This document shows, in pieces, positions 16,068 to 38,071 of a DNA stretch of 64,000 nt (position 1 is the stretch's first letter; each line of letters opens with the position of its first letter). Under the pieces are notes generated by a model that saw nothing but the letters and a program-made list of their open reading frames with translations, was not told the DNA's origin and ran no database searches. The DNA lies in the IMG/VR virus record IMGVR_UViG_3300006793_000017, positions 1 through 64,000 of that record. One strand, given 5' to 3'. The DNA comes from a virus. Position numbers and translations under genes: made by a program.

Positions 16068-16079
16068 GGAGAGATAAAC

Positions 16080-16555: not shown

Positions 16556-17407
16556 ATGGCATTTGATTATCAAAGTTTGAAAAAAGTTACAGGGGCTGCA
16601 ATTGTGGACGGTAGTCTAGCTCAGGCAGACTTAGCGAATACAACTGTAACAGGAACAAACATTGCTACCGGAGCCGTTGGGTCTGACGAAATGGCAACAG
16701 GTGCTGTTGATCTTGGAAGTGCTAAAGCAACAGGTGCATTATCAGTTGCACAAGGTGGTCTAGGTATTAACAGTGGTAGCGGAGCATATAGAGCTGTAAG
16801 AAGCACAGGCTCAGCACTAACTACTGATCAACATGGTATTGCAAGTATGAATGTTTATACAGGTAATAGTACATGGAGTAGACCAAGTGGTGTACGATAC
16901 ATTAGAGTACAAGTACAAGGTGCTGGTGGTGGCGGAAGCGGCCACGGAGAAGGTGGTGCTGCTGGCGGATATGCAGAAAAATTTATTGATGTAACAGGAA
17001 TTAGTTCAGTTTCAGTTAGCATTGGTGGTGGAGGTGGTGGTACATACTACTCCGGTGCTGGTGGTAATGGTAATGGTTCTAGTTTTGGTCCATATGTAAG
17101 TGCAAGTGGTGGACACGGAGCAAACAGACAAAACCAACACAGTGGTGGAGTTAGCGGAAATGGATCAGGTGGTAACTTGAATATCCATACAGGTGGCGGA
17201 TTTAGTCACCACGCTTATAGTGCTCAGAGTACAGCAAACACATACTTTGGTGGAGGTGCTCCAGGTAATCACCCACAAGGTGGACACTTTGCACACAATC
17301 ATCAAAATCATTGTACACAAGGTTCAGGCGGAGCAGGAGCTCACTTCCATGGACATAGGGGTTCAGATGGTAGACCTGGCATGATTATTGTGACTAACTA
17401 CTATTAA
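16556..17407 (+). CDS. Gly/His-rich tail tip/adhesin-like protein A
   Basis: 283 aa; N-terminal 10-residue fibre repeats, then a glycine-rich domain (W.RPSGVRYI.V.VQGAGGGG...G.PG.I.V..Y) with His-rich loops. Confidence 0.75.
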   Translation: MAFDYQSLKKVTGAAIVDGSLAQADLANTTVTGTNIATGAVGSDEMATGAVDLGSAKATGALSVAQGGLGINSGSGAYRAVRSTGSALTTDQHGIASMNVYTGNSTWSRPSGVRYIRVQVQGAGGGGSGHGEGGAAGGYAEKFIDVTGISSVSVSIGGGGGGTYYSGAGGNGNGSSFGPYVSASGGHGANRQNQHSGGVSGNGSGGNLNIHTGGGFSHHAYSAQSTANTYFGGGAPGNHPQGGHFAHNHQNHCTQGSGGAGAHFHGHRGSDGRPGMIIVTNYY

Positions 17408-17422
17408 GGAGTATGAGAGAGA

Positions 17423-18280
17423 ATGGCATTTAATTATCAAACACTGAAAAATTTAACAAATACCTCCTTAGATGGTGCTACAGTTACTGGTGCAGATTTA
17501 GGCACAGATTCAGTTACAAATGCAAAATTAGCGAACGGTGCTATTACTAGTGATAAGATGGCAGCTGGTGCTGTTAACTTAGGCGGTAGTGTAGTTTCTG
17601 GTACAGCGGCATTTAATAAAGGTGGTACAGGACAAACTAGTGTTGGTGGAGCATACCAAGCACTAACAATGAATTCAAGTAATAACAACTTAACCTTTAC
17701 ACCAACAGGTATTAGAGGTATGAGTGTTTATACAAGTACAGGTACTTGGAACAAACCAAGTGGCGTACGATATATTTTAGTACAAGTACAAGCCGGAGGC
17801 GGCGGTGGTTCAGGACATGGTGAATCAGGAGCAGCAGGTGGATATTCAGAAAGAGTACTTGACGTAACAAGTATTAGCTCAGTGAGCTGTAATGTTGGCG
17901 GTGGAGGTGGTGGTACATACTACTCTGGTGCTGCCGGTAACGGAAGTGGATCAAGTTTTGGTCCATACTTATCAGCTGGTGGCGGACACGGTGCTAATAG
18001 ACATAATCAACATAATGGCGGATTACCTGGTGTTGGATCAGGTGGTAACCTAAACATCTATTGTGGTGCAGGCGGAAGTCACGAACAACGTTCAGCAGGA
18101 ATGGGTGGTGCTAGTTTCTTTGGTGGACCAGGTCCATCAGGACACCCACAAGGTGGACACTTTGCACATAACCACCAAGGACATAGTTCACCAGGAACAG
18201 GTGGAACATCAGGATACTTTAGTGGACACAGAGGTGCTGACGGTAGACCGGGAATCATAATTGTAACGGAGTTCTATTAA
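17423..18280 (+). CDS. Gly/His-rich tail tip/adhesin-like protein B
   Basis: 285 aa; collinear paralog of A and C. Confidence 0.75.
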   Translation: MAFNYQTLKNLTNTSLDGATVTGADLGTDSVTNAKLANGAITSDKMAAGAVNLGGSVVSGTAAFNKGGTGQTSVGGAYQALTMNSSNNNLTFTPTGIRGMSVYTSTGTWNKPSGVRYILVQVQAGGGGGSGHGESGAAGGYSERVLDVTSISSVSCNVGGGGGGTYYSGAAGNGSGSSFGPYLSAGGGHGANRHNQHNGGLPGVGSGGNLNIYCGAGGSHEQRSAGMGGASFFGGPGPSGHPQGGHFAHNHQGHSSPGTGGTSGYFSGHRGADGRPGIIIVTEFY

Positions 18281-18281
18281 A

Positions 18282-19136
18282 ATGGCATTTAACTATCAAA
18301 CACTAAAGCAGTACACAGGTGATGCATTTATTGATGCAACTCTAACAGGATCAAAGATAGCAGCAGGCGCAGTTGCAGCAGACGACATTGCATCAGGTGC
18401 TGTTGATGCAAACAAATTAGCAGACGGTGCAGTTAACTTAGGTTCAAATGTAGTTACAGGTACAGTTCCAGTAAGTGGAGGTGGTACAGGACTTACAAGT
18501 GTTGGAGGAAATAATACTATTCTTTCTGCAAACTCTTCAGGTAACGCATTAGAATATAGAAACGAAGGTTTCTCAGGTATTCAAGTTTTTACAGGTAACG
18601 GTACTTGGAACAGACCAAGTGGCGTAAGATACATTAGAGTTAAACTAGTTGGCGGAGGCGGTGGCGCAAGTGGTCACGGAGAGTCAGGCGGCGCTGGTGG
18701 ATACTCAGAAAGAATAATGGATGTAACAGGAATCAGCTCAGTTGGTATTACAATTGGCGGTGGTGGCGGAGGTACTTATTACTCTGGTGCTGGTGGTAAT
18801 GGTAACACAACTAGTTTTGGGCCTTATATGTCAGCAGGCGGTGGACATGGGGCTAACAGACAAAACCAACACTCGGGTGGTGTAAGTGGAAACGGTAATG
18901 GCGGAAACTTAAATATTCACCAAGGTGGAGGTGGTTGTCATCACCACTCGTTTGGTCCAGGTGGATCAACATATTTCGGTGGTGCAGCACCGTCAGGGCA
19001 TCCACAGGGTGGACACTTTGCACACAATCATCAAGGACACAGTGCGCCGGGTACAGGTGGTACAGGCGGGTATTTCCATGGACATAGAGGTTCAGACGGA
19101 AGACCAGGTATTGTAGTCGTTGAGGAATATAAGTAA
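18282..19136 (+). CDS. Gly/His-rich tail tip/adhesin-like protein C
   Basis: 284 aa; collinear paralog of A and B. Confidence 0.75.
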   Translation: MAFNYQTLKQYTGDAFIDATLTGSKIAAGAVAADDIASGAVDANKLADGAVNLGSNVVTGTVPVSGGGTGLTSVGGNNTILSANSSGNALEYRNEGFSGIQVFTGNGTWNRPSGVRYIRVKLVGGGGGASGHGESGGAGGYSERIMDVTGISSVGITIGGGGGGTYYSGAGGNGNTTSFGPYMSAGGGHGANRQNQHSGGVSGNGNGGNLNIHQGGGGCHHHSFGPGGSTYFGGAAPSGHPQGGHFAHNHQGHSAPGTGGTGGYFHGHRGSDGRPGIVVVEEYK

Positions 19137-19167
19137 TAAATAAAAGACAATAGGAGTATATTAAACC

Positions 19168-19683
19168 ATGAAAAAAGCACTTATAGGATATCAAGGTTGG
19201 GTTCAAGACATTAGAGAGCCCGGCGAAGAATTTGAAATCTACAATGGTCCTGACGCATCAATCCAGTGGGTAGATGCTCCAGATGAGATCACTTTAGATT
19301 GGACATTAGAATGGTCCCCACAACAACAGCAAATGATTTGGGTAGAAAGAGACGGCCCATACACACAAGATTCAGAAGCACGTAGAGTTGCTTATGGTGA
19401 AGTTGGTGAACAGTTAGATATGATTTTCCACGAAGTTCAAGAATCAGGAAGTATTTCTGCTTCAGGACCGTGGGCATCACACATTTCTACAGTAAAATCA
19501 ATGATTCCAGCACCAGCAGCACCAGAACTAATCACTGAAGAAGAAGCAATGGTTAGAAGAAATACTACAGAACCAAGCGAAAATAAGCCATGTAATTCAA
19601 GCACTTCGGACTTACCAGCTTGGAAAAGATACAGCGGTTGGACTGATAAATCAAACGATCCAGTTCCAGGCATTAACCAGTAA
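19168..19683 (+). CDS. putative tail fibre assembly/chaperone-like protein
   Basis: 171 aa. The 'R..AY..V.EQLDMI...W..HI..VK..P' motif is typical of proteins downstream of marine phage fibres. TAAATA at 19137 and SD AGGAG upstream. Confidence 0.5.
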   Translation: MKKALIGYQGWVQDIREPGEEFEIYNGPDASIQWVDAPDEITLDWTLEWSPQQQQMIWVERDGPYTQDSEARRVAYGEVGEQLDMIFHEVQESGSISASGPWASHISTVKSMIPAPAAPELITEEEAMVRRNTTEPSENKPCNSSTSDLPAWKRYSGWTDKSNDPVPGINQ

Positions 19684-19707
19684 AAACGTAAGTATACTCC
19701 AAATATT

Positions 19708-19732
19708 AAAAGGCTCTTCGGAGCCTTTTTTT
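19708..19732 (+). terminator. rho-independent terminator
   Basis: AAAAGGCTC-TTCG-GAGCCTTTTTTT: a cUUCGg tetraloop stem followed by a U tract. Confidence 0.9.
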
Positions 19733-19755
19733 ATTTCTGCCCTCTCTACCATAGG

Positions 19756-19762
19756 ATAAATA
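19756..19762 (+). promoter_or_regulatory. late promoter core ATAAATA for the left arm of the enzyme island
   Basis: Motif lies directly after the terminator and upstream of the SD (AAGGA) of 19800. Confidence 0.6.
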
Positions 19763-19799
19763 ATAGTAGTATATTATAAAATACACCAAAGGAAAAGAT

Positions 19800-21422
19800 A
19801 TGAAAATTAAAACAGTAACAATTGTTGGAGGCGGCTCTTCCGGTTGGATGACAGCAGCAGCACTTTCTAAATGTTGCCCACACTTAGATATTACATTAAT
19901 TGAATCTAAAACAATTGGCACAGTTGGCGTAGGTGAAAGTACATTAGGACATATTAATAGATATCTTCAAATGCTTGATCTTAAAGATGAAGATTGGATG
20001 CCAGCATGTAACGCAACATATAAAAACTCAATTCAATTTACAAACTTTAGAGAAAATAAAGGCGAAGTATTTCAATATCCGTTTAGTGATGGATTCGATT
20101 ATACTGATAAGCCAGGTGGCATGGAAAACTGGAGACAGTTAGCAGCACTAAAACCTGAACAATATACTCCAGAAGAATTTGCAAGATTCTTTTGTACAGG
20201 TAATACATTACTTGCTGAACAAAACAAGCAAACTAAAAACGAAGATGGTGTTTTAAGAAACTTTAATTTTGATTGGGATACTGCATATCATTTAGATGCA
20301 GCAGCATTTGGTCAATACTTAAAAGATAAAATTGCTATTCCTAACGGTGTAAAACATATGTATGGCGAAGTACATTCCCATATGAAAGACAATACAAACA
20401 GTTACGTTACACAAGTATTATGTGCAGACGGAACTAAGTTAAACAGTGACTTGTATATTGATTGTACAGGTTTTGCATCTATTATGCTAGAAGGTTGGAT
20501 GGGTTCACACTTTATGAACTTTGAAAAACACTTAGCAAATGATAGAGCATGGGCATGTAGATTACCTTATACTGATAGAGAAAAACAAATGCACAACGTA
20601 ACTGATTGCCATGCACTTGGTAATGGTTGGGTATGGAACATTCCTTTATGGAATAGAATTGGTACAGGCTATGTTTACTCGTCAAGGTTTACAACACCAG
20701 AAAAAGCTCAAGTAGAGTTTAGAAAACATCTTGCAGAAGCACATACACCAGAAATTGCTGAAGCAGCAGAAATGTTTGAAGTTAAAATTAAACATGGTTA
20801 TAGACATAGAGCATGGAAAGGTAATGTAGTAGGTGTAGGACTTAGTTACGGATTTGTTGAGCCATTAGAATCAACAGGACTATTAACTACACACGAAAAT
20901 ATTATTAAACTAGTTGATATATTAAACACAAGAGACGGCCATGTAACTAGAACTGAACGAGAAGGCTTTAACTTTTCTTGTGAATATGATGTTAAAAAGT
21001 TTAGAGACTTTGTATCACAACACTATGCATTCTCTATGAGAGAAGACACTCCATACTGGAGATGGTGTACTGAAATAAATGAATATGATCCGCTTATGCA
21101 TTCAGATGAAATGCAAAAACATTCACAGTATGTTGCTATGATTGGTAACATTGTAGGCGGACATGCGTACGATGAAACATATACAGGAAATTGTTTTATT
21201 ACAGCGGGAATGGGCATTAGAGCGACTGCTACACCTGAGTTAGTTTTACGAGGATCTAGTCGTAGATTCGAAGTAGATATACAAGAGGAAATAGGTGCAG
21301 TTGATCGCATGTATCAACAGTATAAAAATTTTGTATTAGATCATCTAGAGAATCTACCTAGTCATTATGAGTACTTAAAAGAAAACATATATGGCGGGAA
21401 AGATGATTACGAGCTTGATTAA
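19800..21422 (+). CDS. flavin-dependent halogenase (tryptophan halogenase family) 1
   Basis: GGGSSG FAD motif, VGVGEST, catalytic-Lys motif ATYK, WVWNIP and GFVEPLESTG are all canonical. Confidence 0.9.
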   Translation: MKIKTVTIVGGGSSGWMTAAALSKCCPHLDITLIESKTIGTVGVGESTLGHINRYLQMLDLKDEDWMPACNATYKNSIQFTNFRENKGEVFQYPFSDGFDYTDKPGGMENWRQLAALKPEQYTPEEFARFFCTGNTLLAEQNKQTKNEDGVLRNFNFDWDTAYHLDAAAFGQYLKDKIAIPNGVKHMYGEVHSHMKDNTNSYVTQVLCADGTKLNSDLYIDCTGFASIMLEGWMGSHFMNFEKHLANDRAWACRLPYTDREKQMHNVTDCHALGNGWVWNIPLWNRIGTGYVYSSRFTTPEKAQVEFRKHLAEAHTPEIAEAAEMFEVKIKHGYRHRAWKGNVVGVGLSYGFVEPLESTGLLTTHENIIKLVDILNTRDGHVTRTEREGFNFSCEYDVKKFRDFVSQHYAFSMREDTPYWRWCTEINEYDPLMHSDEMQKHSQYVAMIGNIVGGHAYDETYTGNCFITAGMGIRATATPELVLRGSSRRFEVDIQEEIGAVDRMYQQYKNFVLDHLENLPSHYEYLKENIYGGKDDYELD

Positions 21423-22200
21423 AAAGTTTTTTAATAAGCAAAAGCCACACTTGCGGTTCTATAGTCTGTATCCTGGAGTTGCAGATGTTTATCCTATTTT
21501 TCAAGCATCTAAATTACCAAGAAACTTTACAAAAAATCAACCCCCTCCGCAAGTTGAAAGACTAGAAGCTAACGTTGCTAAGTGTCCTGGAATACGAAAA
21601 GTTGCTATGACAGGATGGATAGTACCAGCACCAGCAGACTTTATTATTAGAACAAATGGTGACGGTGTTAGTTTTGAATGGCGCGAACCGATTAAGTTTG
21701 ACAAAGAAATGCCAGGTACTGAATCATATATTATGATGCATACTGAAAGTCAAACTGTACCTGTGCTTGATGATGTTGAAAACACATTAAGGACAACAGT
21801 AAAAGTAGAAACTCCTTGGAGAGTTGAAGCTTCAGACGATATTGTATTGTTACAATTACCACTTACATATGCTAATGAGCCTAGGTTTACATCAGCACAT
21901 GGTATACTAGATCCAATGCAATCACACGTAATAAACTTACAACTGTTCTGGAATGTTTTAGAAGGAGAAACATTAATTAGAGCAGGAACACCATTAGCTC
22001 AGTACATTCCTATTAAAAGAAGTGAACTGAATTATAGTGCGTACGATTATTCAGTTGCATCACAACCAACTGAAGTTGACATACAGAGAGAAAAAGCATA
22101 TAATTATGCTGCAAACTGCTCGTTGCTAGATAAAGACACTTTAGCATCAAGATTAAAAAGGGCAAAGGCAGTCTTAACTAAGTATAAACACAAAGGATGA
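21391..22200 (+). CDS. hypothetical protein (DUF6065-like, possible dUTPase-like fold)
   Basis: KCPGI..GW..P.P.D...TPW...AGTPLAQYIP pattern, seen in phage oxygenase clusters. The true start may be a few codons downstream. Confidence 0.45.
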   Translation: MAGKMITSLIKKFFNKQKPHLRFYSLYPGVADVYPIFQASKLPRNFTKNQPPPQVERLEANVAKCPGIRKVAMTGWIVPAPADFIIRTNGDGVSFEWREPIKFDKEMPGTESYIMMHTESQTVPVLDDVENTLRTTVKVETPWRVEASDDIVLLQLPLTYANEPRFTSAHGILDPMQSHVINLQLFWNVLEGETLIRAGTPLAQYIPIKRSELNYSAYDYSVASQPTEVDIQREKAYNYAANCSLLDKDTLASRLKRAKAVLTKYKHKG

Positions 22201-22469
22201 TTACAATGACAGAAAAAAATAGAAATGTTGTCACTAAGTTGGAAGCTGTAAAAGCTCAACTTCAAGCTGACATGACTAAAAGCAACGAAGAACTTGCCAA
22301 ATTAGAAGAAGAATTTGCTGATTTAAAATTAAATCCGTATGGTATTACTTCTATTGACTTTGCAAAGAGACAAGAACTTTCAACTGATGTTCTAAAGATG
22401 GAAGGCACACTTATGGGTTTAGATTTAGCGATTGAAACCTATGAGGAAGAACATGGTAAGTCCGACTAA
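22197..22469 (+). CDS. hypothetical coiled-coil protein
   Basis: 90 aa, helical heptads, translationally coupled to its neighbours. Confidence 0.6.
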   Translation: MITMTEKNRNVVTKLEAVKAQLQADMTKSNEELAKLEEEFADLKLNPYGITSIDFAKRQELSTDVLKMEGTLMGLDLAIETYEEEHGKSD

Positions 22470-23040
22470 TGAGGGAGGCATACACCTCTTTCCGCCTACA
22501 ATTTGGAAATACAGTTATAACTTTCCATATGACGAAATAGAACAATCAATAGAAGAAGTTTTTGATTCAGTTGAGAGAAATTCTAGTTTAGAAAAAGGCG
22601 CCGCCCTATCTACTGTAACTTTGCCTGAAAGACAGCAGCCCCACACTTGGGAAGAACTTGCTGAATTTCACCATTGGCTAGGCACTAAGTTAACAGGAAT
22701 AAAAGAAGAATTAAATTTTTACGAAAGACAGTCATCGGTTATCGGTTCTTGGTTTAATAGACATTACAAGACAGGATATACTGAAGAGCATTGTCACAAC
22801 TATAGTACGTTTGTAGCAAGTTGCTATATCAAATGCCCACCCGATAGCGGCAATATTGTTTTTAGAAATCCTTTAGAATATCACTTCACAAACTTTCCTA
22901 TAGTAAACGAAACACAAACATTGCAAGAAGTGCAATGTAAAACAGGAGATGTTATTATTTTTCCTAGTTGGTTAAAACACTTTGTTACAGAAAACAAAAC
23001 AGACCAAGAAAGAATTGTAATGACTATTAATATTAAATAA
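22432..23040 (+). CDS. 2OG-Fe(II) oxygenase (TIGR02466-like)
   Basis: LFP.., W.N, HCH, FPSWLKH.V and RIVMT.N motifs. Confidence 0.8.
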   Translation: MKPMRKNMVSPTNEGGIHLFPPTIWKYSYNFPYDEIEQSIEEVFDSVERNSSLEKGAALSTVTLPERQQPHTWEELAEFHHWLGTKLTGIKEELNFYERQSSVIGSWFNRHYKTGYTEEHCHNYSTFVASCYIKCPPDSGNIVFRNPLEYHFTNFPIVNETQTLQEVQCKTGDVIIFPSWLKHFVTENKTDQERIVMTINIK

Positions 23041-23843
23041 TGGACTTTAAAATTTGTTATCCAGATGCAAACACTATCGATAGTGTTATAAAGGTAAAGT
23101 CCTTAGAGGACTTTAAAGCCGAGTACTTTGACTTAGGTGAAGGTATTGGATATTGGATTGCTGATAATCCTTTTTATGATGACGGCTTTAATTTTTTTAA
23201 AGGCTTAGTAAAGTCTTTTCCTATTGTAAAAGATAACAATGCAGAAGGTAATTTAGATCCTAATCCATTTGATACAATACATTTACCAGACTGGACATAT
23301 AAAAATATATGTTTCTTATTGCGTGATTTTTATTTAAAAAATGTAGAAAGCAATATGTTTGATCCGCAAATACATGAATGGGGTAATGTATATTATAAAG
23401 AAAGAGCTAAACCTATTAGTTGCTGGCGAATTCCGCATGTTGATTATCCTAAAGGTTTAGTAGGTAATTTATGGTTTACAGGACACGACTTAGTAGATTC
23501 TTGTACAAAACTTTACAAGTACGAAGGAACTGTAAAAGATAGTCTATACGATTTTCAAACAGATAAAGATCATCCTATGTATGAGCGTTGGTCACAAATT
23601 GCAGATAAACCACAAAGAGCAGATGCTTGGTTCAATATGTCAGACGAAGAATTAGCACAATGGGGATTTAAGTATATGGGATCAGCGCCATCAGTAGAAG
23701 GCAAAATGACAATGTATAGAGCAGATATTAGTCATGCAGCAGTTATTTCATCTAAGGTAGATTTTAGATGGAGTCATACATTTGCATTTTCAGATGATTT
23801 TCCTCCTGAAGTTAGAATGGGCGACTTGGAGTTAAGGTTATGA
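23040..23843 (+). CDS. 2OG-Fe(II) oxygenase-like (DUF6445-like)
   Basis: IPHVD, a distal SH and a terminal R.S..F motif. Confidence 0.6.
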   Translation: MDFKICYPDANTIDSVIKVKSLEDFKAEYFDLGEGIGYWIADNPFYDDGFNFFKGLVKSFPIVKDNNAEGNLDPNPFDTIHLPDWTYKNICFLLRDFYLKNVESNMFDPQIHEWGNVYYKERAKPISCWRIPHVDYPKGLVGNLWFTGHDLVDSCTKLYKYEGTVKDSLYDFQTDKDHPMYERWSQIADKPQRADAWFNMSDEELAQWGFKYMGSAPSVEGKMTMYRADISHAAVISSKVDFRWSHTFAFSDDFPPEVRMGDLELRL

Positions 23844-24466
23844 TGAATATGGATATGTTCTTTCCTACTCCAGTTTGGTGGGAGCAAACAGAACTAGACA
23901 ATACAGACATGCTAAAACTTTGTTATCAACTGCACAAAGAAGATGACAATGGAAGAGTACTAAGTAATCAAGGAGGCTGGCAATCAAAAGATTTTAGGCC
24001 TGATGCATACGATTCAATGAAACCATTACACGATGCAATTATGCAACAAGTAAATCAGTGTATTAGAGATTACGGTTATTACGAAGAATATTGTTATCCT
24101 ATAATGGAAAACTTTTGGTTTAATATTAACAGGCAAGGTAATACTAATTCAGTACATATACACGATAATAGTTTTATATCTGGTGTGTACTATGTAAGTG
24201 CAAAGCCAGGACAGGGTAATTTAAATGTTTACAAAAATCATATGCAAGATTTTATTATTGCATCAGCAGCACCAATGAAAAACTATACACCTATTAGTGC
24301 AGCAGCAATTGCTTATGAACCAGTATCAAGTAAATTAATATTGTTTCCGGGTTGGTTACCGCATGGTGTTGAAAGAAATACAACAGAAGAAGATAGAGTA
24401 AGTGTATCTTTTAATGTTAAATTAATAAGGACAGATGATGAACGACTTCAGCAGAAGAATACTTAG
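23840..24466 (+). CDS. 2OG-Fe(II) oxygenase (TIGR02466-like)
   Basis: SN.GGWQS, WFNIN, HIH, SGVYY, FPGWLPHGV and RVSVSFN motifs. Confidence 0.88.
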   Translation: MMNMDMFFPTPVWWEQTELDNTDMLKLCYQLHKEDDNGRVLSNQGGWQSKDFRPDAYDSMKPLHDAIMQQVNQCIRDYGYYEEYCYPIMENFWFNINRQGNTNSVHIHDNSFISGVYYVSAKPGQGNLNVYKNHMQDFIIASAAPMKNYTPISAAAIAYEPVSSKLILFPGWLPHGVERNTTEEDRVSVSFNVKLIRTDDERLQQKNT

Positions 24467-25154
24467 CGAAACAAACTTAGCGTTTGAAGATAAGCCACAC
24501 TTCTTTAAGAAGTTGCTTGACAATCCTAGCGAATTGGTTACTTGGCAAGATATTGAACAGCACACAAATAAAACAGAACGTTATAACTTTGAACTTATAA
24601 GTCCAGATAGCAGTAAAATTGAAATACCTGTTAGTAGAAAAAATTGGATTTATGATAGAGGTGTGCAAGATAAAGGTTTTATATTTGATAAAGTAAATGC
24701 TGGTTACGGATTAATCTGTTTAGATTACGGATTTCATAATCAAAAAACAATGGATTTTTTAAACGTATTTGAAAATATGTTTAGTATACATGCTGCAATA
24801 CATGTGTATTGTGGGCTAAAAGATTCTAAGTCTTTTACAATACATGATGATTATCCTTGTAATTTTATTATTCAAGCAGAAGGAAAAACTAGATGGAAAG
24901 TGTATAAAAATAAAATTTCTTACATGCATAGAACAGGATTAATGAATGGTAAGTTACAAGATAAAGACATGGAAGTAGATATTGACGTAGAATTAGAACC
25001 GGGAGATGCATTATATATCCCCTCAAGACAGTATCATTGTGCATATCCTAAAGGCAAACGAATATCTCTAAGTATTCCATGCTGGCAGAAACTGCCAACA
25101 GAGCCAATGGAAAATGCAGTAGATAGAAATTATTATAGGATCAACAATGTTTAA
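24435..25154 (+). CDS. JmjC/cupin-4 oxygenase (ribosomal oxygenase YcfD/NO66-like)
   Basis: F..HDD, Q.EGK.RW.V, LEPGDALYIP..YH and R.SLS motifs. Confidence 0.8.
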   Translation: MMNDFSRRILSETNLAFEDKPHFFKKLLDNPSELVTWQDIEQHTNKTERYNFELISPDSSKIEIPVSRKNWIYDRGVQDKGFIFDKVNAGYGLICLDYGFHNQKTMDFLNVFENMFSIHAAIHVYCGLKDSKSFTIHDDYPCNFIIQAEGKTRWKVYKNKISYMHRTGLMNGKLQDKDMEVDIDVELEPGDALYIPSRQYHCAYPKGKRISLSIPCWQKLPTEPMENAVDRNYYRINNV

Positions 25155-25728
25155 ACCGATTGAAATAGAAAATGTAATTGAAAAAGATTACCAAAAACAA
25201 ATATTTGATGTAGTGACTGATATCACTTTTGATTGGCATTTTATGGAAGATACAACATTTGAAAAGAAGGATACTCTTAATACATCTACACCTAGTTTTG
25301 CAAATCTAGTATATCATCCTAACAATAAAGAAAATCCAGGATTAGAATTTTTTACTCCGTTGTTACAGAATACTTGTGCAAAAGCAGGTTTAGAACTAGA
25401 CCAACTGTTACGTATGCGCTTAGGCTTTTTACTTAATACAAAGTATATGATGCCGCATGTAAGATATCAACATAACACACCGCATGTAGATTTTGAAGTA
25501 GATCATTATACTGCATGTTACTATGTTAATGAGTGTGATGGTGAAACTGTTGTATTTCACGAAACAGAAGAGGCAGAAAAATACAAGCCTATGCATAAAA
25601 GTATGCCACAGCAAGGTAAAGTATTAGTATTCAACGGAAGACACTATCATGCAAGTACATGTCCTAAGATGTTTACAAAAAGGATTGTAATGACTATGAA
25701 CTTTACAGCGAGACAAATAGATGGATAA
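25147..25728 (+). CDS. 2OG-Fe(II) oxygenase
   Basis: PHVD, YYVN..DG.T, HYHAS and RIV motifs; paralog of 26931..27542. Confidence 0.8.
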   Translation: MFKPIEIENVIEKDYQKQIFDVVTDITFDWHFMEDTTFEKKDTLNTSTPSFANLVYHPNNKENPGLEFFTPLLQNTCAKAGLELDQLLRMRLGFLLNTKYMMPHVRYQHNTPHVDFEVDHYTACYYVNECDGETVVFHETEEAEKYKPMHKSMPQQGKVLVFNGRHYHASTCPKMFTKRIVMTMNFTARQIDG

Positions 25729-26428
25729 AGAGCAGTATATAAATGAATTACTAGAGCGTGACAAACAATCTAGTTCTCGTATTGTTTCTCAAAATCTAAA
25801 GGATAGATTTACATATCCTTACCTACCTACTATGGTAGTTGATAATTTTTATGAAGAGCCTGATCAAGTAAGAGAATATGCACTTAGTTTAGAATACTTT
25901 AAAGGTGATAGAGGAAGTTGGCCAGGTGTAAGAACTAAACTGTTTCATGAATTTGATCAAAAAAGTTTAGACTTTTTTAGTAAAAAATTACTAGTATATC
26001 TTAAAGATTATGGTTATACAGGGTTTGACGAAATACAAACAGCGTTTCATAGTACACCAGAATCATACACACGTGGCTGGGTACATGACGATGATCCTAA
26101 ATTAAATGTAGCAGGAGTTGTATACTTAAACAAAGAAGCACCTCAAGGAACAGGAACAGTAATATACGAAGATATGGATTTTGATGGTGGCAAATATGCA
26201 GAAGTGTTTATGCAAGATGTATTAGATGTTCCAGCAAAAGAAAAAGAAGAATTTAATCAAATACGCGAAGCACAAGTTGCAGAATTTAAAAAAACAGTAA
26301 CAATGGAAAGTGTATATAACAGAGCTATTATTTTTGATACTAGGCTTTGGCATAGTCCTGAACACTTTTATGGTAATACTATTAAAGACTCAAGGCTTAC
26401 ACAAGTATTTTTTGCGAGGGCAATATGA
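25721..26428 (+). CDS. 2OG-Fe(II) oxygenase (DUF6445-like)
   Basis: VDNFY..P, WPG.R, WVHDD, AGVVYL, YNR..FD..WHS and RLTQVFF motifs. Confidence 0.8.
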   Translation: MDKEQYINELLERDKQSSSRIVSQNLKDRFTYPYLPTMVVDNFYEEPDQVREYALSLEYFKGDRGSWPGVRTKLFHEFDQKSLDFFSKKLLVYLKDYGYTGFDEIQTAFHSTPESYTRGWVHDDDPKLNVAGVVYLNKEAPQGTGTVIYEDMDFDGGKYAEVFMQDVLDVPAKEKEEFNQIREAQVAEFKKTVTMESVYNRAIIFDTRLWHSPEHFYGNTIKDSRLTQVFFARAI

Positions 26429-26934
26429 TTAGAAATATTACACAACCTGTAAAAGTTATTGACAACTTCTTTGAGCAGCCTTGGCTAGTAGAGCATCATG
26501 CAAATAAACAAGAGTTTGTTGACCAAGATAATTCTGTTTTTCCAGGATCACGTTCAGCAACACTAGATGAACTTGATATAGATATGTTTGAAAGATTACT
26601 AGGTAAACTTATTAAACATGTGCTTGGTAAAGAAATGTTTACATTCTTACATTGCGAATATCAAAAAATGAATGAAAGATGTATTGATCAAATTAAACAA
26701 ATCAGCACACAAGCAAATATTGCTGGTACAGTATTTTTAACAGAAAACACTGAACTAGATTCTGGTATTTGTTTTTATGATAATAAACATAATCCTACAA
26801 TAAACATAGAAAATGTTTACAACAGATGTGTACTATGGGATCCTAAAGAACATTATAAAATTCTAAAATACAAACCAAATACACTTATGTTAACGTTTTA
26901 CGGAACAGCAGTACAGAGGTATCCAACACAATGA
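26425..26934 (+). CDS. degenerate DUF6445-like oxygenase paralog (HxD absent)
   Basis: Keeps IDNFF..P, FPG.RS, AGTVFL and NVYNRCVLWD, but lacks HxD and the terminal Arg. Confidence 0.6.
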   Translation: MIRNITQPVKVIDNFFEQPWLVEHHANKQEFVDQDNSVFPGSRSATLDELDIDMFERLLGKLIKHVLGKEMFTFLHCEYQKMNERCIDQIKQISTQANIAGTVFLTENTELDSGICFYDNKHNPTINIENVYNRCVLWDPKEHYKILKYKPNTLMLTFYGTAVQRYPTQ

Positions 26935-27542
26935 CAAATGATATTTTAATACTTGATGATGTAATTCCTAAAGATTATTCAGACCATATTAGAACATTAT
27001 TAACTGGTTGGGAATTTGGTTGGGTCTTTAATCAGAACATGGTTTCTCCTGATGCAGAACTACAAGGCGAAAGCAATCATGCAGGTTTTAATCACTTTTT
27101 TTACGAAAAACAACAAGCAGTAAGTCAACACTTTAATTTTGTATATCCGCTTGTTTTAAGCATTACTAGTGCGTCTAAGACGCCGTATAACAGGTTAATA
27201 CGCATGAGAGCTAACTTGACCCTACCTAACAAAACAAGCACGTTAGAATACCATATGCCGCACATAGACAGCTTCTTTGAACATTGGAATGCAATTTATT
27301 ATGTAAACGATTGTGACGGTGATACTATTATTTTTAATGAAACAAATGATACTTATGATCCTGGTACTGATGATATTATGCGTATCAAAGAGAACAAGTT
27401 TACAATTAAAGAACGTGTTACACCTAAACAAGGTAGAGTAGTTGTATTCCCAGGAAAGTATTATCATACTAGCAGTTATTGTAAAGATTCTGCATATAGA
27501 TCTGTTATTAACATTAATTTAGATAGGGTTCAACTAGGATGA
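26931..27542 (+). CDS. 2OG-Fe(II) oxygenase
   Basis: PHID, YYVND.DGDT, YYHTS and R.VININ motifs. Confidence 0.8.
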   Translation: MTNDILILDDVIPKDYSDHIRTLLTGWEFGWVFNQNMVSPDAELQGESNHAGFNHFFYEKQQAVSQHFNFVYPLVLSITSASKTPYNRLIRMRANLTLPNKTSTLEYHMPHIDSFFEHWNAIYYVNDCDGDTIIFNETNDTYDPGTDDIMRIKENKFTIKERVTPKQGRVVVFPGKYYHTSSYCKDSAYRSVININLDRVQLG

Positions 27543-28096
27543 GCGAATACTACTTACACCAAAGTCAATATATAATCGAGAATAAGACTCAGATTTTTGA
27601 TCATTTAGATAACGCACATGGTGTTTTTAAGAAAATATTTTCTGATAATAATGACAGCACATGGTCATATAATTTGTACAATGTGTTTGCACTAACTGCA
27701 CCTAGCACTATTTTTTATAACATATATAAAGAGCTTGGAACATTTGTAAGAAGTAATATAGGTGATGATCGACCACTGTGGATACAAGCATGGTTAAACT
27801 ATCATAGACCAGATGAATGCTTAACACGACACGGACATGAATTTGATTGGCACGGATATATTAGCATTGATCCTAAAAGTACACAAACTATATTTGATAA
27901 TTGGACTATTGATAACAAGCCAGGTCAAATATATTTAGGACCAGGACATGCTGAACACGAAGTTAAAGTACTAGAACCATATGAAGGTTATAGAACAACA
28001 ATAGGGTTTGATGTACATTCAATACCAAATAATTCTTTTATTAGAAATTATGAAGAAAGACCTTTTGGTAATATGGGGTTAATGCCATTACTATGA
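27539..28096 (+). CDS. 2OG-Fe(II) oxygenase-like protein
   Basis: WLN, HGH, GYISI, EH.V and RTTIGFD motifs. Confidence 0.65.
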   Translation: MSEYYLHQSQYIIENKTQIFDHLDNAHGVFKKIFSDNNDSTWSYNLYNVFALTAPSTIFYNIYKELGTFVRSNIGDDRPLWIQAWLNYHRPDECLTRHGHEFDWHGYISIDPKSTQTIFDNWTIDNKPGQIYLGPGHAEHEVKVLEPYEGYRTTIGFDVHSIPNNSFIRNYEERPFGNMGLMPLL

Positions 28097-28719
28097 TAGA
28101 AGATTACAAAATTATACGAGGCGCAGTATCAACAGAACTCTGCGAATTTCTTGCATTAGAGTACGAACTGATGGAAGAAGTTTGTAAAGTATTGTATGCT
28201 GGTGCCGACTTATCTGACCTTGAAGAAAACACTTTTGCGAGATACGCTCCCTTGATGTTTGAAACATTGATGGTAAAACTAAATCCTTTGGTTGCAAAAG
28301 AATGGGGTCATGAGTTGGTACCAGTGTACTCTTATGCTAGGATATATTATAAAGGATCGCAACTTAAAAAACACTTTGACAGACCTAGCTCTGAAGTATC
28401 GGTATCAGTTGCAATATCAAAAGAACCAGAATACAATTGGCCAATATACATTAAAAATGAAGATGGTGTTGAACACGAGATTAATTTAGATGTTGGTGAT
28501 ATTGTTATATACAGTGGACGTAGGCACGAACACTGGAGAAACCCGTATGAGGGTAACAAAGTAGTACAAGCGTTTCTACAGTACGTAGAAGCCGATGGAC
28601 CATATTCACATTTAAAATGGGATACGAAACCAGCATTAGGACTTCCTGCAGAATTTGTTCGTCAAGAGATAAAAGACGAAGTGCAGAATGTTAAAGATAT
28701 GCTTGGATTTAAGCGTTAA
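28093..28719 (+). CDS. 2OG-Fe(II) oxygenase
   Basis: YSYARIY, LKKHFDRPS.E.S, GD..IY.G..HEHWR and Q.FL.Y motifs, a common T4-like phage family. Confidence 0.8.
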   Translation: MIEDYKIIRGAVSTELCEFLALEYELMEEVCKVLYAGADLSDLEENTFARYAPLMFETLMVKLNPLVAKEWGHELVPVYSYARIYYKGSQLKKHFDRPSSEVSVSVAISKEPEYNWPIYIKNEDGVEHEINLDVGDIVIYSGRRHEHWRNPYEGNKVVQAFLQYVEADGPYSHLKWDTKPALGLPAEFVRQEIKDEVQNVKDMLGFKR

Positions 28720-28878
28720 TTAGTCGCTGACTTTAGTAGGGCCTGCAACGATTTTTGCTGGACCGTGACGCTCTTCAAAGATTTTTGCTGCTGCTTCTTT
28801 GCTTGATGCTTCACAAGTGTCCTGAGTAATAGGCGCTTTACCTACCTCTTTTCTAATAATCATTTTGTAAGTTGCCAT
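28720..28878 (-). CDS. 52-aa small protein not in the ORF track (MATYKMIIRKEVGKAPITQDTCEASSKEAAAKIFEERHGPAKIVAGPTKVSD)
   Basis: Translated by hand. It has SD AGGAG upstream and ATAAATA at 28901-28907 (minus strand), and exactly fills the gap between the two convergent arms. Confidence 0.75.
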   Translation of the reverse strand: MATYKMIIRKEVGKAPITQDTCEASSKEAAAKIFEERHGPAKIVAGPTKVSD

Positions 28879-28899
28879 ATTTGTATAACTCCTATATCT

Positions 28900-30444: not shown

Positions 30445-31939
30445 GGTTTACCTCCAAGTAACGATCTTTTAATATGTTTAATGCTTCTCGATGTGTGTAA
30501 ATTTTTTCATCTGGCCAATCTGCTAATTGTTTTTTCATTAAATTTGTTAAACTTTCATTGTGTCTTTCTGCAAAATTTTCTTCCCAAAACTTTTTACAAG
30601 CATCATAATCAAAAAGATGTAAGCCGTGCATAACTTGTATCCAATTAAGATAACTGAACATAAGAGACGGATCAACAAAGTGTCCTGAATTAGGATAAGC
30701 AGTTTTAAATGACTGTAGTGTTTCTTCGTTGAATGGTGTTAGAACAATACCTTCATCACACCAACGCCAAAACTCTGAGTCGTTACGTTTTGTAAGATAA
30801 TGTATCTGAATAAAGTCAATAATGTTAGTAGCAATTAAATTCATTCTTTCATTAAATCTTTTTGCAACAGTATCATCATTTTTTCTATAGTACAATAAAT
30901 TACCTACAAGTATATTAACTTGTTGTATTGTTGAACCTATTGATGTTGCTTCTAAAGGTTCTACAAACATAGCACTAAGCCCTAATGATACACAATTCTT
31001 TGTCCAAAATTCGTTAACATATCCAGCATTAAATTTTACACGTTTACCTATTTCTAAATCTTTAATACCTAAATGCTTTTCATAGTGCTGCGATACTTCA
31101 TCATATGCTTGTGTTTCGTTAATAAATTGATCACTAAACACATAACCATTTCCATATCTATCTTGTGTAGGAATTCTCCAACACCAACCACTGCTTAGTG
31201 CAGTTGCTTCTGTATAAGATGGGATGTCTTCAGTTCTAGCAGTAGGAAACGCAATAGCACTATTCATAGGAAGTTGATGTCCACAGTCTATCCATTTTTG
31301 TCCTAGTTTACTTGATATAACTCTATTAAATCCACTACAGTCAATAAAGAAATCACTAGCATGTTTTGTTCCAGCTTCGTCAACTAGCTCTTTAACATTA
31401 CCTGTTTCATCTAAAATTACATCTTCAATATCAACATCTAATACTTCGATTCCTCTTTCTACACATAATCGTGTAAAGAATTCATTTAATTTATTTGTAT
31501 CAAAATGGTATTGAGCAAAACTATCATGAAAAGGTTCAGCATGTAAACTACTAGCAGTTCTTTTCCAAACAGTATCAATAGGATCCCAATTTTCAGCAAT
31601 CATTCTCATCCATTGAACAGGTGCTTCACTAAGTGGATCTAGTGCTGCAAACTGTTCTGTTAAACTATGAAAATAATGTTTCCCATCTCCTTGCCAATTA
31701 GTAAACTTAATACCGATTTTAAATGTTGCTCCTGTTTCTCTAACAATCGTTGGAACATCAACATCAATGTGGTGCATAAATCTTTGCCAGTGTTCTGTAC
31801 TACCTTCACCAACACCAATAATACCAATCTTACTTGATCTTAAAAGTTTTAATTTTAATAGAGGGTGAGATTTTCTAAGTGTTAGTGCTGCAACTAATCC
31901 ACTTGTTCCGCCACCTAATATTGTTAGAGATTTTATCAT
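30434..31939 (-). CDS. flavin-dependent halogenase family protein 3
   Basis: GGGTSG, IGVGEGSTEHW, ATFK, WCWRIP and FVEPLEATS motifs. Confidence 0.88.
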   Translation of the reverse strand: MIKSLTILGGGTSGLVAALTLRKSHPLLKLKLLRSSKIGIIGVGEGSTEHWQRFMHHIDVDVPTIVRETGATFKIGIKFTNWQGDGKHYFHSLTEQFAALDPLSEAPVQWMRMIAENWDPIDTVWKRTASSLHAEPFHDSFAQYHFDTNKLNEFFTRLCVERGIEVLDVDIEDVILDETGNVKELVDEAGTKHASDFFIDCSGFNRVISSKLGQKWIDCGHQLPMNSAIAFPTARTEDIPSYTEATALSSGWCWRIPTQDRYGNGYVFSDQFINETQAYDEVSQHYEKHLGIKDLEIGKRVKFNAGYVNEFWTKNCVSLGLSAMFVEPLEATSIGSTIQQVNILVGNLLYYRKNDDTVAKRFNERMNLIATNIIDFIQIHYLTKRNDSEFWRWCDEGIVLTPFNEETLQSFKTAYPNSGHFVDPSLMFSYLNWIQVMHGLHLFDYDACKKFWEENFAERHNESLTNLMKKQLADWPDEKIYTHREALNILKDRYLEVNHEL

Positions 31940-33423
31940 AACTTATAGGTAGTCCTTCCTTTTAATGTTTCTATTGCTTCTCTACATTTCATCCAGCCGT
32001 TACCTGGAGTTTGTGGTAGCATAGATAATTGTGCTGTATCTTCTGCACGATATTTACTATAACGCTCATTATATAATTTTTTAATGCTAGGAATATCAAA
32101 CATACGCAATCCATGCATAATCTGTATCCAATTTAAATTATCGTAAATTCTAAAACTTCCGTGCATACCATCTTCGGGTAATAATATTTGATTTACAAAT
32201 TGTTTTTTAAAATTTTCTAAGTTTTGTTTATTAAAAGGAGTAACTTCTATTTCATTTTTACACCAACGCCAAAACTTTGAATCTTCTCTTTGTGTAAAAT
32301 AATGCAATTGAATAAAGTCTAACACATTACTTAAACAGTCATCAAATATCCTATTGTATTCATTTATAGTTGCTTGATCGCCACGTTCCCAAGATGCTAG
32401 TGCGCCAACTAATGCTCTTGATTGTTGTATAGTTGTTGAAATACTACTTGCTTCTAAAGGCTCTACAAAGTTACTGCTAAGTCCAATGCTAACACAGTTC
32501 TTAATCCAAAACTTATTAACCTTACCTGAAACAAAATTAATTTTTCTACCTATATTAATTGTATCTGAAAATAAAGATTGTATTTCTGCTATGGCTTCGT
32601 CTTCAGAAATAAATTGATCACTAAACACATAACCGTTACCAAAACGTTCTTGTACAGGACTACGCCAATGCCAACCAGCACTTAATGCTTTAGAAAGTGT
32701 GTAAGGTGGTATCTCTTCTTGGCGTGGTGTTTGAAAAGCAATAGCACTATTCATAGGTAAAAATGATGACCAGTCTACCCATTCAGCACCTAGTTTACTT
32801 GCAATAACTCTTTTGAATCCACTACTATCAATAAAAAAGTCTGCGGTGTGTGTTCGTCTTTCTATGTCGACTACTGAGTCTACAAAGCCCCCGTCACCAA
32901 TGTTAACATCTACAACTTCTGTAGTTATAACGTTAATACCTGCTTCAATGCATCTCTTTTCTAAAAATGCATTTAATTTTTCACTATCAAAATGGAACTG
33001 ATAGTAATCTTCAAATGGCGGACTTACATATCCTTGCATAGGTAAATCCCAATGCAACGATTCAGAATCAACACCTTCTGAAATCAATCTCATCAATGTA
33101 TGTGCATCACCTGTGTATGCATCTACAAATATATATGGTTCTGCTAAACTGTGATAGTAGCTGGTTTTGTCACCGTGCCAATCTTCAAACTTAATACCAA
33201 TCTTAATAGTTGCACCACATTCTCTTGCAAGATCAGTCATTGTAATACCTACTGCATCAGCGAATCTTCTCCAATGTTCAGTACTACCTTCGCCAACACC
33301 AATAGTTCCAATTTTATCAGATTTAATAAGTGTAATGTCTAAGTTGTCAATAGACTTTTTATGATATAGTGCAGTCATTAGTCCAGCATTACCGCCACCT
33401 AGCACAAGTAATTTTTTAATCAT
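31936..33423 (-). CDS. flavin-dependent halogenase family protein 4
   Basis: GGGNAG, IGVGEGSTEHW, ATIK, WHWRSP and FVEPLEASS motifs; close paralog of protein 3. Confidence 0.88.
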   Translation of the reverse strand: MIKKLLVLGGGNAGLMTALYHKKSIDNLDITLIKSDKIGTIGVGEGSTEHWRRFADAVGITMTDLARECGATIKIGIKFEDWHGDKTSYYHSLAEPYIFVDAYTGDAHTLMRLISEGVDSESLHWDLPMQGYVSPPFEDYYQFHFDSEKLNAFLEKRCIEAGINVITTEVVDVNIGDGGFVDSVVDIERRTHTADFFIDSSGFKRVIASKLGAEWVDWSSFLPMNSAIAFQTPRQEEIPPYTLSKALSAGWHWRSPVQERFGNGYVFSDQFISEDEAIAEIQSLFSDTINIGRKINFVSGKVNKFWIKNCVSIGLSSNFVEPLEASSISTTIQQSRALVGALASWERGDQATINEYNRIFDDCLSNVLDFIQLHYFTQREDSKFWRWCKNEIEVTPFNKQNLENFKKQFVNQILLPEDGMHGSFRIYDNLNWIQIMHGLRMFDIPSIKKLYNERYSKYRAEDTAQLSMLPQTPGNGWMKCREAIETLKGRTTYKL

Positions 33424-34037
33424 TTCTTTTCCTTGGTATGTACTTCTAAACTTGCAACAGAGTCTGTTGCTAGATTAAAATTTATATCCCCATATGGCAT
33501 TGTATTAAAACTTATAATGTATCTATCTTTTTCTCCGAAGTGTGGAGTTGAACTATGAAATAACCAACTAGGAAATAAAACAAGTTTTCCAGCTTCAGCA
33601 TCACTAAACCAATGCGGACTATAATCATGTCTAAGTACTTCTAGTTGTGCTTCTGTTCTATGCTTAACAGGATCTTCAAATACTGTTGCAGCACCTTCAG
33701 TAACATAATACACCCCACTCAAAAAACTCATAGAGTGTCTGTGATATTGTAAACGCATACCTTCTCTAGGCAATGCTCTATTAAACCAACTGCTTGTAAT
33801 TTTAAAACCATCGCAGTCAAATTTTTGTTGTACGTGAACTTGCTTTATGCAATCATTAATCCATGTAAACAATGGATTCAATTCTTTTTTGTCATGTAAG
33901 TTTCTCATAGAACTAATTGTATCAGAATGTTTTACATGATCTGCATACTGCTCACACAAAGGAATCAAAGCATCGTTGTCAAGCTCTGTGTTCTTAAATT
34001 CAAATAGTTCTGTTGGAAACGTAGGTATTACTTTCAT
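33420..34037 (-). CDS. 2OG-Fe(II) oxygenase (TIGR02466-like)
   Basis: WFN, HRH, LSGVYY, LFPSWLFHS and RYIISFN motifs. Confidence 0.85.
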   Translation of the reverse strand: MKVIPTFPTELFEFKNTELDNDALIPLCEQYADHVKHSDTISSMRNLHDKKELNPLFTWINDCIKQVHVQQKFDCDGFKITSSWFNRALPREGMRLQYHRHSMSFLSGVYYVTEGAATVFEDPVKHRTEAQLEVLRHDYSPHWFSDAEAGKLVLFPSWLFHSSTPHFGEKDRYIISFNTMPYGDINFNLATDSVASLEVHTKEKK

Positions 34038-34615
34038 TAAAACTCAACCCAGCCTGTTAAAAGATATTTTTCACCACTTAATGGCGGATTGCCTCTGTGA
34101 GTATGCGTGTAACTTGCGGGCCAAACAACTAAGGTTCCTTCAGTAGCAGCAATACGCTTCTTTTGGTACAACCATTCTGTTTCTCCGCCTTCGTCAACTG
34201 TATTAAGATACATTCCCCACGCTGCAATTCTACCTGACCTTTCTTTTGTATCTGATTCAAAATGCCAAGTATGATATCCTTCTCCTGGAAGGGTTTTTTG
34301 AAGTTTCATAAAGTAAACTCTGTGATCGCCGCACTCGCCTAACACACTATAATGTGCAGTATATTGCTTCCAGCAATCAATAAATCTATTCATAAAAGTA
34401 TGTATAGTAGGATTGTCTGTTGACATATTCAATGCAGGTTGTTCAAGAAGAAACGCAGCATGATCTGCTTTATTATGTGCTGAATTATCTCCTAAAGTTT
34501 GACGACTAGCAGTTAAATGCAAGTCGTTCAATTTTTCATAATATTCAATAAGGGCTGCACATTCTTCGGGTCTCATAACGCCGGTCCATGTTGCAATATC
34601 GTTCTCTATAATCAT
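34037..34615 (-). CDS. 2OG-Fe(II) oxygenase (prolyl 4-hydroxylase-like, cyanophage type)
   Basis: GYHTWHFE, YLN.V.EGGET, WPA.YTHTHRG and KY..TGW motifs. The start is moved to the ATG at 34615, 5 nt after ATAAATA. Confidence 0.85.
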   Translation of the reverse strand: MIIENDIATWTGVMRPEECAALIEYYEKLNDLHLTASRQTLGDNSAHNKADHAAFLLEQPALNMSTDNPTIHTFMNRFIDCWKQYTAHYSVLGECGDHRVYFMKLQKTLPGEGYHTWHFESDTKERSGRIAAWGMYLNTVDEGGETEWLYQKKRIAATEGTLVVWPASYTHTHRGNPPLSGEKYLLTGWVEF

Positions 34616-34620
34616 ATTAC

Positions 34621-34671
34621 TATTTATGGCCAGTTTATTAATGACATGAATAGTCTGAAAGCAGATAAATA
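34621..34671. promoter_or_regulatory. divergent pair of late promoter cores
   Basis: ATAAATA on the minus strand at 34621-34627 and on the plus strand at 34665-34671. Confidence 0.65.
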
Positions 34672-36435: not shown

Positions 36436-36444
36436 GTATAAAGC

Positions 36445-38049: not shown

Positions 38050-38071
38050 ATACAGTAGAGGAACAAATATT

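Follow-up and report, generated by a model that had tools for sequence, protein, structure and literature searches.

The closest described counterpart of the locus reported here is a gene cluster of cyanophage Syn9, which Iyer, Abhiman, de Souza and Aravind (2010; PMC2938197) proposed to serve secondary-metabolite synthesis; the passages of that paper on the Syn9 cluster draw no connection to the genes gp38 and gp39, and later papers, in their passages on these genes, class them as auxiliary metabolic genes, with no link to gp38/39 drawn either. Few "auxiliary" genes are as common in marine cyanophages as those for halogenases and 2-oxoglutarate (2OG)-Fe(II) oxygenases, enzymes whose substrates have been unknown since 2005-2010. 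One such halogenase, VirX1 of cyanophage Syn10 (PDB 6qgm), a trimer with a large open active site, serves as a biocatalyst though its natural substrate is not known. Here we analyzed the first 64 kb (the window) of IMG/VR virus record IMGVR_UViG_3300006793_000017, a 91.8-kb contig with a CheckV completeness of 25%, in which three Gly/His-rich tail-fibre tip proteins (the tips) and a gp40-like gene precede an island of halogenases and oxygenase-fold proteins arranged in two convergent arms (Table 1). The first-pass annotation of the window, which proposed that the island modifies the tips, had overlooked the 2010 description of the cluster and the different role given to it there. We found the tips and the enzymes to be linked without exception among the testable loci, in jumbo phages as well as in cyanophages.

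To survey metagenomes, we fetched 79 IMG/VR loci with tip 1. The gp40-like gene and a halogenase were found downstream of the tips in all 60 loci with at least 1.5 kb of downstream sequence, and the JmjC gene in all 40 loci with at least 8 kb, with the gene order unchanged down to 45-65% identity. Among 50,697 GenBank phage records, the tip family was present in 19 (10 phages), and in 19/19 the homologue of the island's JmjC gene was located 5 to 9 kb downstream of the tips. Six annotated loci were inspected, representing at least four named Kyanoviridae genera plus S-CREM1 (genus unassigned), and all six had the full layout of tips, gp40-like gene, halogenase and oxygenases. On the other hand, the long fibre proteins upstream had no homologues in the cyanophage loci, whereas the tips, the gp40-like protein and the enzymes all had them, so the unit shared between the phage families is, by homology, one that starts at the tips and leaves the fibre shafts outside. 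Most proteins of the module were 38-64% identical between the families, compared with 34% for the large terminase (TerL, against Syn9), and the rank order of identity was alike for tips and enzymes, with the jumbo-phage relatives ranking above Syn9 and S-CREM1, and these above S-WAM1, P-TIM40 and S-RIM44. Judged by gene content, order and identity, these comparisons show the cassette to be inherited as one unit in two phage families.

A survey of the co-occurrence of island and tips had been set beforehand in the first-pass annotation as a test of its proposal, and its outcome was favorable not only in the absence of exceptions but also in the relation between island content and tip type. More distant, Cys-rich Gly_rich_2 tips had within 10 kb no such enzymes, or only one oxygenase or one VirX1-like halogenase; in loci L209 and L211, a VirX1-like halogenase lies about 0.8 kb after the Cys-rich tip. 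In a further locus (L095:105-8362), a tail assembly chaperone and a Cys-rich Gly_rich_2 protein are followed by a carbamoyltransferase, about five 2OG oxygenases and a HAD phosphatase. Since the distant Cys-rich tips are thus accompanied by few or other enzymes, island content co-varies with tip type. We failed to find any simple correlation across lineages among the counts of His, tips or enzymes.

The documented cyanomyovirus late promoter is NATAAATA. The motif ATAAATA was rarer than chance in the window (12 copies observed, 26 expected), and 13 of the 15 copies in the 91.8-kb contig were placed no more than 60 nt upstream of a same-strand ATG, for which only 3.7% of positions qualify. The well-placed copies precede, among others, fibre and connector genes and both arms of the island. 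Before the plus arm, [A/C]TAAATA was kept in 59 relatives despite a variable spacer, being exact in 37/59 and CTAAATA in the others inspected, and in Syn9, S-CREM1, S-WAM1, P-TIM40 and S-RIM44 the motif was found 20 to 29 nt before fibre genes, the tips or the gp40-like gene leading into the enzymes. Relatives G002 and G003 encode a gp55-like late sigma factor. Early expression had been named at first pass as an observation that would speak against tip modification; the conservation of the late motif before the island in relatives and cyanophages, together with this sigma factor, points in the other direction, and late expression of the island is well supported as a prediction from these signals. 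That each arm begins with ATAAATA, as the first-pass annotation had it, held true as to the specific placement of the motif, with the qualification that the minus-arm copy ends only 5 nt before its ATG. The same arrangement, ATAAATA followed by exactly 5 nt and ATG, was observed at six genes (34615 on the minus strand, 43262, 51959, 55298 and 61051 in the window, and 82303 in the contig). This suggests leaderless or near-leaderless late mRNAs in the clade, because a spacing of 5 nt leaves no room for a Shine-Dalgarno sequence. As a candidate early promoter, we also considered a perfect sigma-70 consensus (TTGACA-17-TATAAT) at 22076-22104 (+), inside the end of the gp43-like gene. It was kept in only 2 of 36 distinct relatives, sigma-70-like sites overall were not above chance, and the site is probably due to chance.

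All four flavoenzymes that had been assigned to the halogenase family matched PF04820 and had the GxGxxG motif, the catalytic Lys, WxW and the catalytic Glu intact, with these residues invariant across relatives, and they were 24-46% identical among themselves. The plus-arm enzyme aligned with VirX1 from end to end (E 4e-195), with Lys, Glu, GxGxxG and WxWxIP intact. The three minus-arm enzymes (E 2e-86 to 3e-104), which are conserved in relatives G001 to G005, were mutually divergent (25-46% identity), and the I-P of WxWxIP varies among them (IN, IP or SP). A host flavin reductase would be needed for halogenase activity, since Flavin_Reduct (PF01613) had no match in this contig or in three large relatives (199-278 kb).

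The 12 oxygenase-fold genes, named here by the first coordinate in Table 1, were assigned to PF13759/TIGR02466, PF20043, PF08007 and PF13640 or had no family match. The first-pass count of 12 was correct, and 11 of them keep their metal motif across relatives (up to about 50 homologues each); the remaining one, the DUF6445-like 26425, has lost it and looks like a degenerate oxygenase copy. On the other hand, Pfam names only two DUF6445 proteins (25721 and 26425) where three had been proposed. Assignments to 2OG-FeII_Oxy_5/TIGR02466 were obtained for 22432, 23840 and 33420, and weakly for 26931 and 27539. In 22432, 23840, 27539 and 33420, an invariant HxH replaces the usual HxD/E, together with the distal H and Rx(S/T). 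The structures 3bvc and 2rg4, solved for relatives of these proteins, lack a functional characterisation. In 23040, 24435, 25721, 28093 and 34037, HxD/E...H is accompanied by Arg or Lys as the basic 2OG-binding residue, and HxD was retained in 25147 and 26931; 23040, 25147 and 28093, with no or weak family matches, are orthologues of Syn9 dioxygenases in which HxD...H is kept. The JmjC_2 protein (24435) shared 47% identity with Syn9 gp49 across 99% of its length, and its closest PDB sequences were NO66 and YcfD.

The gp43-like and gp44-like proteins, which are 49% and 48% identical to their Syn9 counterparts, had a match to phrog_7084 and a lead to DUF6065. The Syn9 passages of Iyer 2010 (PMC2938197) mention a dUTPase-fold protein with a conserved Cys, the gene not being named there, and we infer from its invariant Cys and from the annotation of S-CREM1 that gp43 may be this protein. 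Neighbouring genes in each arm overlap by 1 to 32 nt, in agreement with the two convergent, tightly coupled arms described at first pass. Equally in line with that description, which listed a nonribosomal peptide synthetase (NRPS), a polyketide synthase (PKS), a transporter and a flavin reductase as absent, no NRPS, PKS, scaffold-building enzyme, carrier protein, transporter or resistance gene was seen in the island with Pfam/NCBIfam.

Table 1. Features of the tip-enzyme locus and its surroundings, by position in the 64-kb window
Feature	Position	Strand	Basis or remark	Syn9 counterpart
Two giant fibre-like proteins (1862 and 2608 aa)	2238-7826 and 7895-15721	+	Three CBM_5_12 each	
Two small fibre-related proteins (106 and 152 aa), just before tips	15747..16538	+	PHROG tail-fibre and tail-protein matches	
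Three paralogous Gly/His-rich gp38-like tail-fibre tip proteins (283, 285 and 284 aa)	16556..19136	+	PF21722 Gly_rich_2, phrog_863	gp38/39
ATAAATA late-promoter-like motif	19136..19142	+	26 nt before gp40-like gene; in 47/59 relatives	
gp40-like protein (171 aa)	19168..19683	+	51% identity to Syn9 gp40; phrog_1787	gp40
Intrinsic-terminator-like hairpin and T run, after gp40-like gene	19708..19729	+	T-run tails at same place in relatives	
ATAAATA motif	19756..19762	+	38 nt before plus arm	
VirX1-type flavin-dependent halogenase (540 aa)	19800..21422	+	PF04820, E 3e-105	gp42 (54% identity)
gp43-like (269 aa, invariant Cys65) and gp44-like helical protein (90 aa)	21391..22469 (starts 21391 and 22197)	+	Syn9 orthology	gp43, gp44
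Ten tandem oxygenase-fold genes, listed below	22432..28719	+	Pfam/NCBIfam, Syn9 orthology, conserved motifs	
Oxygenase, TIGR02466-like	from 22432	+		gp45
Oxygenase	from 23040	+		gp46
Oxygenase, TIGR02466-like	from 23840	+		gp48
Oxygenase, JmjC	24435-25154	+		gp49 (47%)
Oxygenase	from 25147	+		gp51
Oxygenase, DUF6445	from 25721	+		gp52
Oxygenase fold, DUF6445-like (169 aa)	from 26425	+	Metal motif lost	
Oxygenase	from 26931	+		gp53
Oxygenase, TIGR02466-like	from 27539	+		gp47
Oxygenase	from 28093	+		gp54
Conserved small ORF (52 aa) at convergence point of the arms	28720..28881	-	44-58% identity, distant clade members	
ATAAATA	28901-28907		23 nt upstream of 52-aa ORF	
Trp_halogenase, minus arm (514 aa)	28900-30444	-	PF04820	
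Trp_halogenase, minus arm (501 aa)	30434-31939	-	PF04820	
Trp_halogenase, minus arm (495 aa)	31936-33423	-	PF04820	
TIGR02466-like oxygenase, minus arm	33420-34037	-	Pfam/NCBIfam	
2OG-FeII_Oxy_3, gp50-like, heads minus arm	34037-34615	-	Pfam/NCBIfam, Syn9 orthology	gp50
ATAAATA for minus arm	34621-34627	-	Ends only 5 nt before ATG at 34615	
ATAAATA for fibre gene at 34702	34665-34671	+	Divergent from minus-arm motif	
Variable right-hand block: tail fibre (577 aa), S8 subtilase (534 aa), fibre-connector-like (542 aa)	34702..39700	+	PHROG, Pfam	

The first-pass annotation had also described the three tip proteins as His-rich, and they indeed contain 11 to 15 His each. They match phrog_863 ("tail fiber assembly") as well as the C-terminal end of phrog_21412 (tail fibre protein), and a search of PDB sequences with the tip profile gave no match. 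Their C-terminal Gly/His domain and His motifs are nearly invariant across the clade and constitute the most conserved part of the module, with loops rich in invariant His, Asn, Arg, Gln and Tyr, and they match Syn9 gp38/gp39 at 64-70% over the C-terminal domain. Syn9 gp39 (L172:11150-12328) matches the window tips in two pieces, its annotated C-terminus running into an odd Trp/Arg/Cys-rich tail, suggestive of a frameshift or of an error in sequencing; in Syn10, the second tip gene gave a single-piece alignment up to the C-terminal end. Encoded without exception after the tips and before the first halogenase, the gp40-like protein contains six Trp that vary little or not at all. Its AlphaFold2 (AF2) model (pLDDT 66) had no significant Foldseek match, the top rows (a Pam3 fibre and a Mu fibre chaperone) being at chance level, and its atlas leads were to tail-fibre assembly families with scores of 0.85-0.87. 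The gp40-like protein could be a fibre chaperone, or could itself be a halogenase substrate.

These features point to a protein as the substrate of the enzymes, because of the structure of the cassette, the late motifs, the lack of a scaffold-building enzyme, the JmjC relatives, the closest solved of which are protein His/Arg hydroxylases, and the open active site of VirX1, and the tips are the obvious candidate since they are co-inherited with the enzymes. The enzymes and the fibre parts would be produced together late in infection; in the invariant tip loops rich in His, Asn, Arg, Gln and Asp, side chains would be hydroxylated by the oxygenases, the halogenases would halogenate aromatic residues with reduced flavin drawn from the host, and a chemically altered receptor-binding tip would result. 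We put forward tentatively, as a possibility somewhat short of an even chance, that the enzymes act on a ribosomally made protein, most likely the co-encoded tips, and thereby alter the receptor-binding tip. The fuller proposal that the phage hydroxylates and halogenates its own tail-fibre tips with about fifteen enzymes, as a multi-step tailoring of virion proteins, is possible but doubtful.

The linkage supports tailoring of the tips by the enzymes, short of proof, and several points weigh against it. We infer the modification of the tips, and none has been observed so far. To our knowledge, flavin halogenases that act on ribosomal products do so on short peptides and not on folded proteins. 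No substrate is known for the TIGR02466 and DUF6445 families, adjacency in phage cassettes can persist without any enzyme-substrate relation, lone halogenase or JmjC-like genes are found far from fibre genes in P-SSM2, S-H38 and Syn30, and the AF2 model of the tip (pLDDT 51) is too poor for inspection of the loops. In addition, the supplementary ORF table of Sullivan 2010 (file 3) flags the Syn9 fibre proteins gp34 and gp35 as virion proteins, while gp36 to gp40, both halogenases and gp43 to gp49 carry no virion proteomics flag. By analogy with T4 gp38, the missing flag may fit a role of the tips as assembly factors; it could also be explained, for Syn9 gp38/39, by few tryptic sites or by the modification itself. 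The tip-modification proposal of the first-pass annotation is thus supported in part, gaining from co-inheritance and late motifs and losing from the missing flag. As to the His residues, HxH motifs bind iron in known fibre tips, for example T4 gp37, and such metal sites, by analogy, would be a simpler known explanation of His-richness that needs no enzymes. A siderophore-mimicking tip, which had been suggested as one outcome, is speculation and resembles the Ferrojan Horse hypothesis, in which the idea of iron-bearing fibres has already been published.

The enzymes might instead belong to a small-molecule pathway turning a free amino acid or host metabolite into an organohalogen, an antibiotic or a siderophore-like secondary metabolite, in which case the tips would be adjacent only through the history of the cassette and a late timing in common. 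Iyer 2010 (PMC2938197), in its passages on them, read the Syn9 cluster and bacterial neighbourhoods with TonB-type receptors in this way, and a related jumbo-cyanophage cluster has been interpreted likewise in the literature. In vitro, VirX1 accepts many small aromatics in free form for halogenation, the carbamoyltransferase and HAD phosphatase of L095 are typical of small-molecule or sugar tailoring, and the solitary homologues mentioned above are located away from fibre genes. However, a scaffold-forming enzyme, a carrier protein, a transporter and a resistance gene were all not seen in the island, late timing just before lysis would be odd for a metabolite that benefits the host, and the module is also present in the jumbo clade, in which psbA was not found (contigs 56-75% complete), which disfavors a role specific to cyanobacteria. 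A small-molecule pathway also leaves it unexplained that the shared unit starts exactly at the tips, and we consider it rather unlikely.

The enzymes may also act late in infection on proteins other than the tips, which would then be mere neighbours: on the giant fibres with their CBMs, on further virion components, or on proteins of the host envelope or ribosome. The JmjC member falls in the ribosomal-oxygenase clade, many Trp and Tyr of the large fibres are invariant, and the evidence for late timing serves such targets equally; however, co-inheritance with the enzymes holds for the tips and not for the fibre shafts, the fibre block on the right varies between relatives, and we found no evidence for any particular alternative, making this quite improbable. 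Far less probable still is that the oxygenases mainly consume 2OG, or repair DNA, as auxiliary metabolic genes tuning the nitrogen-stress (NtcA) response of the host. Sullivan 2010 put such a role forward for the 2OG-Fe(II) oxygenases of cyanophages at large, but at least five distinct families are here retained one-to-one between lineages, they come together with halogenases and late promoters, the island is present in a clade where psbA was not found, and Pfam identified no AlkB-family member among the island oxygenases. Tailoring of the tips remains our preferred reading, at the tentative level stated above.

The source phage has a T4-like structural module (gp15, sheath, terminase and Ad2 adaptor), and its large terminase is 53% identical to TerL of Pseudomonas phage PA5oct and 34% to that of Syn9. 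Relatives in the clade reach 265-278 kb at a completeness of 72-75%, contigs of 362-378 kb encode proteins of the same tip cluster, and psbA was not found in four clade contigs (estimated to be 56-75% complete). Because of the affinity of its terminase, its genome size and the failure to find psbA, the source phage is, on sequence grounds, an aquatic jumbo myovirus of about 360 kb with a T4-like structural module and not a member of the Kyanoviridae; its identity as a Kyanoviridae cyanophage, which we also considered, is ruled out by the same three features. The terminases of the clade are nearest to those of PA5oct, Phosso and Atu_ph07, and the clade consists of aquatic jumbo phages of roughly 360-380 kb, with uncultured Caudovirales phage UFOVP181 as a GenBank member. 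A megablast search of the island against GenBank phages gave zero matches.

To the left of the tips, the 106- and 152-aa fibre-related proteins are found in the jumbo-clade relatives too, with no cyanophage counterparts, and the same is true of the giant CBM_5_12 fibre-like proteins, which are kept in the jumbo clade. To the right, the block beyond the island has only about 9 close relatives and is missing from G001, G002 and G004, so that the first-pass picture of an island flanked by two fibre blocks fits the window itself and does not extend to several of the relatives. The S8 subtilase in this block (534 aa; 36445-38049, +) is sandwiched by two fibre genes and has weaker homologues in some relatives.

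The constant co-inheritance of the enzymes with one tip subfamily turns the substrate question into a concrete experiment on cultured phages such as Syn9, S-CREM1, S-WAM1 and P-TIM40. If the tailoring proposal is true, it would reveal what VirX1 and the abundant 2OG oxygenases of cyanophages act on in nature, and tips as the substrate would mean a novel type of chemistry in virions that bears on host recognition; if the tips are not the substrate, the linkage still needs explaining.

Among the known systems, the bacterial neighbourhoods of TonB-type receptor, SapC, JmjC and Trp-halogenase genes, as given in the relevant passages of Iyer 2010, share with the island a gp52-like 2OG dioxygenase, JmjC and halogenases, whereas the island is located in a phage structural region and contains no receptor or SapC gene. 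The T-even gp38-type proteins (phrog_863; PF21722) share with the window tips the Gly-rich motifs split by loops, the length of about 280 aa and the position directly after long-fibre genes; however, the loops of the window tips are His-rich and nearly invariant, whereas those of the T-even proteins are hypervariable. By sequence family, the tips are candidate polyglycine-II (PGII) adhesins of the gp38 type, in which Gly-rich motifs form a PGII sandwich at the fibre tip. VirX1 is a close homologue of the first halogenase, and the 530-aa halogenase of Syn10, presumably the product of the VirX1 gene (PDB entry: 531 aa), is 54% identical to it and occupies the same position behind the tips, but VirX1 is only 24-27% identical to the minus-arm halogenases. 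The Syn9 neighbourhood is the closest of all. The plus arm is collinear with Syn9 gp38 to gp54 in a tblastn map (26-64% identity), with the same gene layout in Syn10 and S-CREM1, and the shared content includes many dioxygenases of several families, the JmjC orthologue of gp49, the gp43-like and gp44-like genes and the Trp-halogenase. The window differs from Syn9 in having three tips (Syn9 has two), a terminator and, in addition, a promoter of their own between the gp40-like gene and the enzymes, an extra convergent arm with three more, divergent halogenases, two oxygenases and the 52-aa ORF, and a jumbo myovirus of about 360 kb, not a member of the Kyanoviridae, as its carrier. This kind of island is thus already known from Syn9, and what is new is the phage family that carries it and the convergent second arm, which is conserved in the jumbo clade.

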